The notes under the pieces: generated by a model
The model's database searches: none
What the model was told of the DNA's origin: nothing
What the model saw: the letters and a program-made list of their open reading frames with translations, nothing else
Assembly (NCBI GenBank): GCA_031409275.1
Contig: JANNXA010000049.1
Location: forward strand, 32,001 to 96,000
Reading direction: 5' to 3'
DNA length: 64,000 nt
Source of the DNA: Planctomycetota bacterium
GTDB lineage: Bacteria > Planctomycetota > B15-G4 > SIAN01
In this document: positions 15,250-23,254 of the stretch, in pieces
Layout: each line of letters opens with the position of its first letter
How positions within the stretch are numbered: the stretch's first letter is position 1
Translations under genes and position numbers: made by a program

Positions 15250-15831
15250 TCACTGCTGCGCGCCCGTCTCCTCCTCGTCCTCGCCTTCAGCGCCGAGATA
15301 GCCGAGCGCCTTCAGCTGGTCGAGCGCGCCCGAGTCGCCCGCCTCCATGAACTTCTGCTCGCAGAACTTCGCGACGCGCTTCAGCTTTTTCATCACGACC
15401 GCGTCGGTCCCGAACTTCTTCTTCGCCACCTCGAGCAGGTCCAGCGCAACCTTCGGGTGATCGCTCTCCGCGAGGCCGATCCCGAGCGAGGCGTACTGCT
15501 CCGCCGTCAGCACCGCGGTCGACGCGGCCATCTGTTGCACCGCCGCCTTGCCGGCGTCGTCACCGTTGCCGCGCGCGGACGCGGTGATCTTGTCGCTCCA
15601 CGCCTGCGCCTTCTCTTCGGCGGTCGCCTTGGAGTCGGCAAGCGCCGCGTCGAGCGCCACAAGGGCCGCCTTCCACTCCTCCTTGGCGGCGGCGCTAGTC
15701 GCGTCGTCGAGGAGTTCGCTTGCGCTCTTGCCGGAGGTTGGCGCTCCACCGGAGTCGGTCGGCTTCTGGTCGCCGCATGCCGCGACGAGTGAGAGAGCGA
15801 TCAGGGCGGTGAGCAGGTGCGTGGGGCGCAT
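15250..15831 (-). CDS. Helical (TPR-like) lipoprotein with C-terminal LKALGYL motif
   Basis: Lipobox 'LVAAC', Ala/Lys-rich helices, ending 'ALDQLKALGYLGAEGEDEEE'. Confidence 0.75.
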   Translation of the reverse strand: MRPTHLLTALIALSLVAACGDQKPTDSGGAPTSGKSASELLDDATSAAAKEEWKAALVALDAALADSKATAEEKAQAWSDKITASARGNGDDAGKAAVQQMAASTAVLTAEQYASLGIGLAESDHPKVALDLLEVAKKKFGTDAVVMKKLKRVAKFCEQKFMEAGDSGALDQLKALGYLGAEGEDEEETGAQQ

Positions 15832-15990
15832 GAATTCAAAGTGCTCCGTAGCGGAAGTAGGGGGGGCGAGAGCGTAGCGGCGAAAGTGTCTTTGGCCGCG
15901 GAGGCCGCCGTGCTGCTTGGACGGCGGTCGCCCGCTCGCGTCGATGGTCGGCGCGGGACCCTACCTCGCCTCCGCGCCGCCGGCACCGCC

Positions 15991-16063
15991 TTGACGAGCC
16001 GCAAAGCGAAGGTATCTATTCCGCCTCCAATGAGAGTGCGATCGGAGTGCGATTGGAGTGCGA
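15991..16063 (+). promoter_or_regulatory. Putative promoter/operator: TTGACG -35-like box plus three GAGTGCGA direct repeats at 11-bp period
   Basis: TTGACG at 15991 and an AT-rich TATCTATT at 16013 (poor -10 match). GAGTGCGA occurs at 16034, 16045 and 16056. Inverted CTCCAAT/ATTGGAG at 16025/16052. Confidence 0.55.
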
Positions 16064-16116
16064 CCGCTTCGGAGGCGGGCGCTGCCGTTGCCCGATCTCG
16101 CCGTCTTGAGGGCCCG

Positions 16117-20924: not shown

Positions 20925-22957
20925 GCCGAAAGGACGCCTCCGTGACCTTGCAGAGCCACCGTTTCCCGATCGCCGCGCTGCTGCTCGGCGCGCTTGCGCT
21001 CGCGGCGCCCTCCTGTAGCCGCTCCTACGGCGTCAGCGGCAAGAAGCTCGTCGTGCTCGGCATCGACGGCATGGACCCGAACCTGCTGCGCGAGTACATG
21101 GACGCCGGCCTGCTGCCGAACTTCAAGGAGTTGGCCGACTCCGGCACCTTCCTGCCGCTTGGCACCAGCAACCCGCCGCAGTCGCCGGTCGCGTGGTCGA
21201 ACTTCATCACCGGGATGGATCCTGGCGGCCACGGCGTCTACGACTTCCTCCATCGCGATCCGCAGACCTACCTGCCCGTGAGTTCGACGCAGATCACCGA
21301 AGGCGAACCGACGACGTTCTCGCTGCCGGGCGACTATCAGCTCGAGCTGCCAGCCGACAGCCGCCCGGTTCGTCAGGGTGCCGCGTTCTGGGACCTGCTC
21401 GGCGAGGCGGGGATTCGCTGCGACGTCTATCGCATGCCCGCCGCCTATCCGATCCAGGCCAGCGATCAGCTGACGCTCTCCGACATGGGGACGCCCGACC
21501 TGCAAGGCGGCATCGACGGGATGTACGCCTACTACACCAGCGACGTCCCGGACAACTTCGACAAGGTGCACGGCGGGATCTGGAAGCAGGTGAAGCTGCA
21601 GAAGGGGCGCGCTGACGCGAAGCTCTACGGACCGCCGAGCCCCTTCAAGACGCCGCCCGAGGGCAAGCACGAGGTCGCGAAGTCGGAGCAGCCGTTCACG
21701 ATCTTCGTCGACCCGACCGAAGAGGTCGTCCACATCGCGATCGAGGGTGGCGACGCCTGCGTGCTCGAGAAGGGGCAGTGGAGCGACTGGCTGCGCTGCT
21801 CGTTCGACCTCGGCCTGAAGCAGTCGATGGGCGGCATGGTGAAGTTCTACGTGCAGCAGGTGCGCCCGAACCTGCGCCTCTACTGCTCGCCGGTGAACAT
21901 CGACCCGCGTGCGCCGTGCATGCCGATCTCGACGCCCGACGACGCCGCCGTGATCGACCTCGCCGCCTCGATCGGCCCGTTCTACACGCAGGGTCTTGCC
22001 GAGGAGACCAAGGCGCTGCAGGAAGGGACGATCGACGACCGCGAGTTCATCGAGCAGTGCAACGACATCCATCACGAGCGCATGCGCATGCTCGACCACG
22101 CGCTCGCGCATTTCGACGACGGGCTGCTCTTCTTCTATTTCTCCACCGTCGACCTGCGCAGTCACATGATGTGGCGCCACATCGCGGCCGGTCACCCGGC
22201 GCGCGACGAGAAGATCGCGGCGCAGTACGCCCGCTCGATCGAGGATTCCTACGTCCTCATGGACCAGGCGCTCGGTCACCTGCGCGAGAAGATCGGCGAG
22301 GCGACGCCGCTGATGGTCCTCTCCGACCACGGCTTCTCGCCCTTCACGCGCCGCGTCAACTTGAACAACTGGCTGCTGAAGGAGGGCTACCTCGTCCTCA
22401 CCGAGAAGGCGGCGCAGGACCCGAAGGGGGTCTACTCGCTCGCCGAGGGCGGCGGTGTCGACCGCTCGAAGTCGCGCGCCTATGCGGTCGGATTCAACGG
22501 CATCTACCTGAACCAGAAGGGGCGCGAGAAAGAGGGCGTTGTCGAACCGGCCGCGCGCGACGCGCTGCTGGCCGAGATCCGCGGCAAGCTGCTCGCGCTG
22601 CGCGACGAGTCGAAGGGTGGCGCCAAGGTGGTCTTCCGCGCCGATCTGCGCGACGAGATCTACCACGGTGATCAGCTCGACCACGCACCCGACCTCGTCG
22701 TCGGCTACGACCGCGGATTTGGCGCTTCCGACACCACGGCGCTTGGCCAGGTGCAGCCGCGCGACGCCTTCGTCGAGGACAACAAGGACCTCTGGAGCGG
22801 CAACCACTTGATGGCGCCCGATGTGGTGCCGGGCATCTTCCTCACCAACCGCAAGATCGATCCGAAGGACCCCTGCCTGTACGACCTCACGGTGACGATG
22901 CTCGCCTACTTCGGCGTCAGCAAACCCGCCGTGATGCGCGGCAAGAGCCTGTTCTGA
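20921..22957 (+). CDS. AlkP-superfamily (NPP-type) protein 3, probable lipoprotein
   Basis: Hydrophobic stretch ending 'LAAPSC', then 'LGIDGMD', 'NPPQSPVAWSNFITG', 'DLRSH', 'LSDHGF', 'WSGNH'. ATGA overlap with the previous gene. Confidence 0.92.
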   Translation: MSRKDASVTLQSHRFPIAALLLGALALAAPSCSRSYGVSGKKLVVLGIDGMDPNLLREYMDAGLLPNFKELADSGTFLPLGTSNPPQSPVAWSNFITGMDPGGHGVYDFLHRDPQTYLPVSSTQITEGEPTTFSLPGDYQLELPADSRPVRQGAAFWDLLGEAGIRCDVYRMPAAYPIQASDQLTLSDMGTPDLQGGIDGMYAYYTSDVPDNFDKVHGGIWKQVKLQKGRADAKLYGPPSPFKTPPEGKHEVAKSEQPFTIFVDPTEEVVHIAIEGGDACVLEKGQWSDWLRCSFDLGLKQSMGGMVKFYVQQVRPNLRLYCSPVNIDPRAPCMPISTPDDAAVIDLAASIGPFYTQGLAEETKALQEGTIDDREFIEQCNDIHHERMRMLDHALAHFDDGLLFFYFSTVDLRSHMMWRHIAAGHPARDEKIAAQYARSIEDSYVLMDQALGHLREKIGEATPLMVLSDHGFSPFTRRVNLNNWLLKEGYLVLTEKAAQDPKGVYSLAEGGGVDRSKSRAYAVGFNGIYLNQKGREKEGVVEPAARDALLAEIRGKLLALRDESKGGAKVVFRADLRDEIYHGDQLDHAPDLVVGYDRGFGASDTTALGQVQPRDAFVEDNKDLWSGNHLMAPDVVPGIFLTNRKIDPKDPCLYDLTVTMLAYFGVSKPAVMRGKSLF

Positions 22958-23053
22958 ATCGAGCCGGATCGCCGCGCTCGCGACTCGTGACCTGAACCAA
23001 CCACGACCCAACGACCCGCGCCTGCGCTGCAGGCGCTTCCGACGGAGCAACCC

Positions 23054-23254
23054 ATGTTCGGTGGCAACAAGGTCAAGCTCGAGAAGGATGTCTTCGAGAA
23101 GCTGAAGAAGTTCGCGGCCGCGGCCGGCTACAGCTCGCTCGACGAGTTCGTGAACCACATCCTCGAGCGCGAGCTGCAGTCGATGGACACTGGCGGCAGC
23201 GAGGACCCCGAGGCGATGCGCGAGAAGCTGCGCGGCCTCGGCTACATCTCCTGA
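23054..23254 (+). CDS. Second small RHH-like protein with LRGLGYIS tail
   Basis: 'KVKLEKDVFEKLKKFAAAAGYSSLDEFVNHILE' resembles the 16117 protein. GGAG RBS upstream. Confidence 0.85.
   Translation: MFGGNKVKLEKDVFEKLKKFAAAAGYSSLDEFVNHILERELQSMDTGGSEDPEAMREKLRGLGYIS

Follow-up and report, generated by a model that had tools for sequence, protein, structure and literature searches.

A short C-terminal helix with the signature L-x-x-L-G-Y recurs on unrelated proteins encoded in a 64,000-nucleotide stretch of the Planctomycetota contig JANNXA010000049.1 (hereafter the window; G+C 0.65–0.74, source genome 5.6 Mb), among them several proteins of an operon that also encodes ATP sulfurylase (Sat), adenosine 5′-phosphosulfate (APS) kinase (CysC) and enzymes of the alkaline-phosphatase (AlkP) fold. 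We propose, with about an even chance of being right, that this LGY tail is a short tethered helix serving as a portable docking element for AlkP-fold catalytic domains. The tail would act in cis on most AlkP-fold enzymes of the genome, reached through a flexible linker past the catalytic module; in the operon, where the AlkP enzymes are tail-less, it would be supplied instead by two small ribbon-helix-helix (RHH) proteins, RHH1 and RHH2, by CysC as a Phe variant, and by a neighbouring lipoprotein.

Distribution and conservation of the LGY tail

Occurrences of the motif were counted in 9429 open reading frames (ORFs) of the source genome that passed a filter on third-position G+C (GC3) and were compared with five shuffles; RHH1 is removed by this filter and is additional to the counts. 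LxxLGY[LIVM] was present 30 times against 4.0 in the shuffles; counted within the last 20 residues of the ORFs, it was present 17 times against 0.4. The initial annotation of this DNA had proposed a genome-wide test for enrichment of the motif in sulfur loci. Five control patterns were about as frequent as in the shuffles (GF, 15 vs 17.6; reversed, 3 vs 5.6; LAY, 7 vs 7.4; LGL, 42 vs 51.8; LG[HW], 16 vs 15.4), ruling out chance or composition as the source of the motif, and LxxLGF occurred at none of the C-ends.

The 26 strict carriers outside the window are mostly AlkP-fold enzymes, with 15 Sulfatase-Pfam proteins and 2 that match Phosphodiest only; 2 arylsulfotransferase-like proteins and 1 HEAT protein follow, and the remainder comprises 2 without a family and 4 internal matches in unrelated proteins, about the number due to chance. 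One of the two carriers without a family was rejected as a chance match, its motif lying within a probable membrane segment. In the relaxed form [LIVMA]xx[LIVMA]GY, the tail was found after the catalytic domain in 46 of the 55 PF00884 (Sulfatase) ORFs of the genome and on 3 of 9 ORFs matching PF01663 (Phosphodiest) only, one of these in relaxed form only. The statement in the initial annotation that such tails commonly end sulfatase and NPP proteins thus holds for this genome. In the PF00884 ORFs the Pfam domain ends roughly 105–150 residues before the tail. About ten of these ORFs continue for 183–241 residues beyond the motif; in the others the tail is close to the C-end. Where no further domain follows, 0 to about 25 residues may come after it. 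The distant Sulfatase-Pfam protein of the window (53258..55780, minus strand) had been noted for an ELMALGYV after its catalytic domain, and this motif is located at 53924–53947, 116 residues past the end of the Pfam domain and between the catalytic domain and a TPR extension. In the arylsulfotransferase-like ORFs of the source genome (C22:176634-178346, C14:343504-345747 and C12:30411-31394), all three of which carry LGY, the motif stands inside the domain envelope, apparently in an inserted loop.

At the nucleophile position, 35 of the 55 PF00884 ORFs have T-x-P-[SAT]-H and the other 20, read by eye, mostly W-T-x-P-S; the class I sulfatase motif CxPxR (C/S-x-P-x-R) was found in none of the 55. 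The tailed PF00884 enzymes are therefore probably Thr-type AlkP-fold enzymes and not formylglycine sulfatases. With Thr at this position and no CxPxR, the tail is linked to the AlkP fold and not demonstrably to sulfate esters.

In the operon and beside it, the tail stands on proteins of different kinds. RHH1 (81 aa; 16117..16362, plus strand) consists of an RHH-like N-terminal part, an Ala-rich variable linker and the C-end HKLKNLGYL-stop (16333–16359). It has 1172 homologues, and the tail is present in 118 of the 120 homologues listed; in an alignment of 25 rows KLxNLGYL is invariant and the RHH part almost so, whereas linker length is very different. In RHH2 (66 aa; 23054..23254, plus strand) an RHH-like body, which includes a GYSS turn, is joined by an acidic linker to the C-end EKLRGLGYIS-stop (23222–23251), and all 55 of 55 homologues end in L-x-G-L-G-Y-I-[SED]. 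The lipoprotein (193 aa; 15250..15831, minus strand and divergent; lipobox LVAAC; no family in a Pfam scan) has DQLKALGYL at 15295–15321, followed by 14 acidic-rich residues, and orthologues in five loci carry the tail as LQALGYLS, LKALGYLG, LRALGYIGD, LKSLGYL-stop and LSQLGYL-stop. CysC (199 residues; 17685..18284, plus strand), of which Pfam APS_kinase covers residues 3–149 and NCBIfam 2–173, extends ~25 residues beyond the kinase core and ends in RSLKAKGFI (18255–18281), with K in place of the second L and F in place of Y. This variant is not due to chance, as a tail of the form L[KR]x[LK]x[FY][ILV], mostly L[KR]xLx-F-[ILV], is kept in 13 of 16 related loci; the three loci in which CysC lacks it all belong to one family, f5. 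Phe stands at the Tyr position in 12 of 14 CysC tails, that of the window included, and the CysC tail reads ...RLKSLGYL-stop in one related genome and ...RLKEKGYI in another. The description of a single LxxLGY helix on four proteins of the locus therefore stands for the ends of RHH1 and RHH2 and needs qualifying for the other two: the lipoprotein motif is near the C-end and not at it, and the CysC tail is a variant.

The alignments indicate that the tail is under purifying selection in RHH2, RHH1, the sulfatase-like homologues and CysC. Its presence on RHH1, RHH2 and CysC, which have no signal peptide, and on the exported lipoprotein and enzymes alike rules out a sorting signal.

The motif is absent from the C-ends of the three AlkP enzymes of the operon region, as the initial annotation had claimed, and the same is true of their orthologues in up to 12 related loci. 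AlkP1 (12509..15118, plus strand; PF01663, E 1.2e-24), whose coordinates are those of the longest ORF, with the real start probably further downstream, ends in ...ANRESLIPPN, and AlkP3 (20921..22957, plus strand; PF01663) in ...MRGKSLF-stop; AlkP2 (18732..20924, plus strand; PF01663) is the predicted RHH2 receptor. AlkP3 terminates exactly where the PF01663 core domain does. A tailed PF01663 paralogue is laid out as core, a linker of ~35 residues and tail, so that AlkP3 stops where the linker would begin. The tail was likewise never seen at the C-ends of Sat or of the 281-aa membrane protein of the operon in the related loci.

Architecture of the tail

The extended motif begins with an N-cap (often D/S/T-P), continues through two and a half helical turns and closes with L-x-x-L-G-Y, forming an amphipathic helix with hydrophobic residues at i, i+4, i+7 and i+10. 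An AlphaFold2 model of one tailed enzyme (45-row alignment) had a mean predicted local distance difference test score (pLDDT) of 84.9, with the tail helix (residues 488–497) at ~80–82 and the linker at 69; L494, L497, G498 and Y499 are invariant across 45 sulfatase-like homologues of 44–68% identity. Solved sulfatase structures matched only residues 40–472 of this model, the best being 6hr5 (Z 38.6, root-mean-square deviation 2.3, 350 residues aligned). As modelled, the tail is appended outside the canonical catalytic fold, to which a linker tethers it.

The closest structural idea on record is that of the C-terminal extensions with a role in oligomerisation that some AlkP-superfamily sulfatases and phosphonate monoester hydrolases (PMHs) have. 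Choline sulfatase 6fny and PMH 2vqr, both among the structural matches of the model (Z 32–33), resemble the tailed enzymes in having an extension after the canonical AlkP-superfamily fold. The LGY tail differs from arms of this type in being flexibly linked and portable to RHH proteins, a P-loop kinase, a lipoprotein, HEAT and arylsulfotransferase-like proteins, and it has no likeness to them in sequence: a profile of 23 tails searched against all Protein Data Bank (PDB) chains gave a best E of 0.14, hence no chain at E < 0.1, and no sulfatase or PMH was among the matches. The faint PDB likenesses were to a designed TPR and to TamA POTRA1, and the profile weakly resembled the consensus TPR junction ALELDPNNAEALNNLG (E 0.23). 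Overall, the tail is supported as a real, portable element on unrelated folds.

The likeness to the TPR junction, together with the Sulfatase-Pfam ORFs that continue well past the motif, of which all four scanned had Pfam TPR repeats, speaks for an adaptor peptide read by TPR-type scaffolds, which in fused forms would bind the TPR part that follows. We give this a slim chance, as a linker of ~15 residues and a conserved LPDP stand between the tail and the first TPR helix, and the operon encodes no TPR neighbour for RHH1, RHH2 or CysC. Folding the tail and TPR part of the distant protein (10 paralogue rows, a shallow alignment) gave the tail a pLDDT of 70 and then 51, compared to 91–98 for the TPR part, a result that neither supports nor disproves such binding. 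The EEVD peptide of Hsp70 and Hsp90 is a short C-terminal docking peptide read by TPR proteins. The LGY tail is, like EEVD, a short conserved peptide past a flexible linker on unrelated proteins; unlike EEVD, it is not confined to the extreme C-end, since as many as about 25 residues, or an entire domain, can come after it, and the receptor predicted for it is a catalytic domain of the AlkP fold instead of a TPR.

Compartments and the modelled AlkP2–RHH2 complex

For the proposed docking, tail and AlkP-fold partner would have to share a compartment. The AlkP2 orthologues begin with a signal-like helix, AxA followed by YIGPGAG, a second transmembrane helix and a strongly basic stretch, after which the catalytic domain starts. 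This N-terminus (18732–18970 in the window) is an unusual anchor, predicted to place an AlkP-fold domain on the cytoplasmic side. Because the second transmembrane helix and the basic stretch precede it, the catalytic domain of AlkP2 is probably cytoplasmic. AlkP1, whose N-terminus is signal-peptide-like, and AlkP3 have signal peptides or lipoboxes and should be exported, whereas RHH1, RHH2 and CysC have no signal peptide. The tails would thus work on both sides of the membrane, and since AlkP1 and AlkP3 are exported as judged by sequence, the cytoplasmic tails of RHH1, RHH2 and CysC could meet only AlkP2.

Both AlkP2 and the 281-aa operon protein are membrane proteins. A flexible linker leads to the tail, which sits at the C-end or close to it and combines basic and hydrophobic residues with an aromatic one. 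These features would also suit an amphipathic helix that targets the membrane, as in MinD or FtsA, and would hold CysC, RHH1, RHH2 and the enzymes at the membrane surface. Strict Leu-Gly-Tyr invariance over hundreds of homologues is unusual for lipid-binding helices, however; acidic stretches or a further domain come after many of the tails, and the lipoprotein is anchored already. We therefore regard membrane targeting as very improbable.

Given the compartments, docking was modelled for AlkP2 (residues 75–705, 12-row alignment) with one copy of RHH2 (28 rows). The interface score ipSAE was 0.67, 0.64 and 0.68, compared to 0.00 for the best of three controls; 116 of 157 solved complexes score at least this high, as do 2 of 215 mismatched pairs, a calibration that is only rough for custom alignments such as these. 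The partner pLDDT was 74–76 and at least 85% of the contacts were common to the runs. On RHH2 the interface comprises residues 22, 24–28, 31, 35, 45–47, 50, 52, 55 and 57–65, the last stretch being the tail; the GYSS turn and parts of the linker also take part. On AlkP2 it includes residue 125, beside S124 and S126 of the nucleophile motif PSMSPVAW, residues 648 and 653, which flank D651 and H652, and several conserved loops; it is known as residue lists for each chain and not as tail-specific residue pairs. Among 12 AlkP2 orthologues, 26 of the 39 interface residues are invariant, compared to 261 of 631 overall (Fisher one-sided p 9e-4). The model supports binding of RHH2, tail included, to the catalytic face of AlkP2, with the tail and the GYSS turn predicted to lie over that face of the membrane-anchored, probably cytoplasmic enzyme. 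The tail–AlkP complex prediction that the initial annotation had called for thus gives a confident interface for RHH2 and AlkP2, and its idea of a docking tag supplied in trans to AlkP active sites gains from the RHH2 result; that supply in trans is not the general purpose of the tail, as enzymes carry it in genomes without the AlkP2 module.

Several observations weigh against reading the tail as a docking element. The conservation of the interface could be explained by closeness to the active site alone, and the lowest-error contacts come from the RHH2 body (residues 22–35, with the GYSS turn) and not from the tail. The score comes from one modelled pair, a model score is not the same as binding, and a single copy of RHH2 was folded although RHH proteins are normally dimeric. 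In cis, the tail pLDDT of ~80 gives no packing site. Finally, the relatives G008 and G021 have no RHH1, no RHH2 and no full-length AlkP2 match, and yet tailed enzymes make up 3 of 10 and 4 of 10, respectively, of their top sulfatase-like ORFs. Because tailed enzymes occur there without the AlkP2 module and the RHH genes, the tail has a role independent of the operon; its basic role looks to be with the AlkP-fold enzymes themselves, with the operon proteins as borrowers.

The initial annotation had also offered the tail Tyr as a covalent carrier, by analogy with DltX. On this reading the Tyr, as carrier or acceptor, would be sulfo- or phospho-modified and would pass a group to the AlkP-fold site or take one from it. 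The modelled interface extends to residues adjoining the nucleophile and metal motifs, the RHH and enzyme tails have an invariant Tyr, LxxLGF is not enriched, and the carriers include proteins of an operon linked to 3′-phosphoadenosine 5′-phosphosulfate (PAPS) as well as all three arylsulfotransferase-like ORFs. An indispensable Tyr hydroxyl is contradicted, however, by the Phe of most CysC tails, which makes a carrier role unlikely for CysC, and with “sulfatases” of the Thr type that lack CxPxR, sulfate chemistry is not established. This alternative is weakened accordingly, and we hold it extremely doubtful.

The PAPS-linked operon, its putative operator and related systems

RHH1 matches Pfam RHH_8 below the cut-off (E 0.0029; 18.1 bits, cut-off 25.4), and its homologues are named CopG or Arc/MetJ-type in databases. 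RHH2 has weak matches to Pfam RHH_4 (E 0.094) and FitA-like RHH (E 0.19), and its profile retrieves RHH1 orthologues at E 1e-6 to 1e-9. Both proteins have, between their two helices, an invariant G-[YF]-S-S turn (RHH2 residues 24–28, window 23120–23140). RHH proteins are normally obligate dimers.

Upstream of RHH1, 50–90 nt before its start, an operator-like array (16025..16066, plus strand) opens with a partial palindrome and continues as three direct repeats of 11 nt, GAGTGCGAT(C/T)G. Loci of families f1 and f4 also have ATYGGAGTG units 5′ of RHH1, arranged either with an 11-nt spacing or as GCACTCCAATCGGAGTGC; in the genome, an exact match to the two-unit pattern occurs only once. The putative operator therefore has the form of short repeats about one helical turn apart near RHH1's own promoter, and RHH1 is probably a genuine repressor. 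With this array upstream of the gene, capture of the repressor via its tail becomes a concrete hypothesis: RHH1 would repress the operon from its own operator, and its tail would report to, or be held by, an AlkP-fold partner. Mlc with PtsG, and PutA, exemplify repressors that an enzyme or transporter retains at the membrane. By analogy, the same logic may apply to RHH1 as a repressor with its own operator that is captured through its tail by membrane-anchored AlkP2. CysC would be kept close to an AlkP-fold partner by its tail, and the lipoprotein would do likewise on the outer side of the membrane with exported AlkP1 or AlkP3. We infer that tail binding would affect catalysis or transcription.

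The same array bears on a different reading, in which the helix serves for self-association in general: tails would bind each other or form a small bundle, RHH1 dimers would assemble on tandem operators and enzymes would oligomerise, with no AlkP receptor involved. The Mnt repressor has a C-terminal tetramerisation helix, and the LGY helix is suitably amphipathic; the array, with three to four operator-like units of 11 nt, would favour cooperative binding, and tailed enzymes without the AlkP2 module are also in keeping with self-association. It leaves unexplained, however, why the tail is concentrated on AlkP-fold enzymes (46 of 55) and on the partners of the tail-less AlkPs, and the complex model would place the tail on AlkP2. 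We consider self-association unlikely, though not far-fetched.

The docking reading has a more far-reaching form, which we consider rather improbable, in which the tails are a plug code for AlkP-fold active sites. AlkP2, as a membrane-anchored enzyme with a Ser nucleophile, would use or sense PAPS, CysC would hand PAPS over when docked by its tail, RHH2 would gate the cleft, capture of RHH1 at that site would couple transcription of the operon to the enzyme's state, and in the 46 tailed enzymes the plug would act from one subunit to another.

The remaining genes place these proteins in a conserved module. Sat (16470..17624, plus strand; Pfam ATP-sulfurylase, E 3.1e-92, plus PUA_2) is separated from cysC by 60 nt in the window, and no ordinary sulfotransferase was found in the stretch examined around the operon. 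The membrane protein of 281 aa (23347..24192, plus strand), which always follows RHH2 and closes the module, has an EMC3/TMCO1-like (insertase-type) match to Pfam EMC3_TMCO1 that is below the cut-off (E 6.8e-4). Beside the distant sulfatase-like gene, a minus-strand ORF of 686 aa (51139–53199) has a CxxxCxxC-type stretch, CYYGKCTFCGD.

Of 41 related genomes, 26 have RHH1. Among 16 related loci, 11 keep the whole order RHH1-sat-cysC-AlkP2-AlkP3-RHH2-membrane protein; the rest are one locus truncated by the end of its contig, one with just RHH1-sat-cysC and three with just cysC-RHH1. The loci of family f4 have one extra gene between sat and cysC, which in L046:11415-12371 encodes a protein of 318 aa with a weak Sulfatase match (E 8.3e-7) and is not a DHH pApase. 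Two f2 genomes without RHH1 retain AlkP2-AlkP3-RHH2-membrane protein, with the RHH2 tail unchanged. RHH2 adjoins AlkP3 and the membrane protein in all 13 of 13 loci where it was found, and a phylum-wide sample of 201 genomes has it in 28; in several families, RHH1-like second matches lie 6–7.5 kb from RHH2 on the same contigs. Databases assign the close homologues to metagenome-assembled genomes of Planctomycetes or Planctomycetota, and a protein atlas lists look-alike clusters in other phyla, which we take as a lead only.

A comparable arrangement, copG-sat-pApase-type I phosphodiesterase-cysC, appears in the excerpted description of a Pyrococcus yayanosii cluster (PMC8268124). As described there, this cluster shares with the window operon a CopG/RHH gene in first place, then ATP sulfurylase, APS kinase and a PF01663-type enzyme (PMC8268124). 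The window operon differs in having no DHH pApase between sat and cysC and in the addition of a second AlkP enzyme, RHH2 and the membrane protein, and the excerpt makes no mention of a shared tail (PMC8268124).

A full-text literature search found no description of the motif, with the P. yayanosii cluster paper as its one relevant result, and the docking tag is likely undescribed. An invariant tail of 10–15 residues on enzymes, a kinase, regulators and a lipoprotein would point to an unrecognised interaction code around AlkP-fold enzymes, a superfamily that is very large and has many bacterial members without a known role. AlkP2 would be a first testable partner for the conserved PAPS-linked operon, and the tail suggests how a small repressor could read out the state of an enzyme. 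The tail may also help in annotating and classifying these proteins and serve as bait for their partners.

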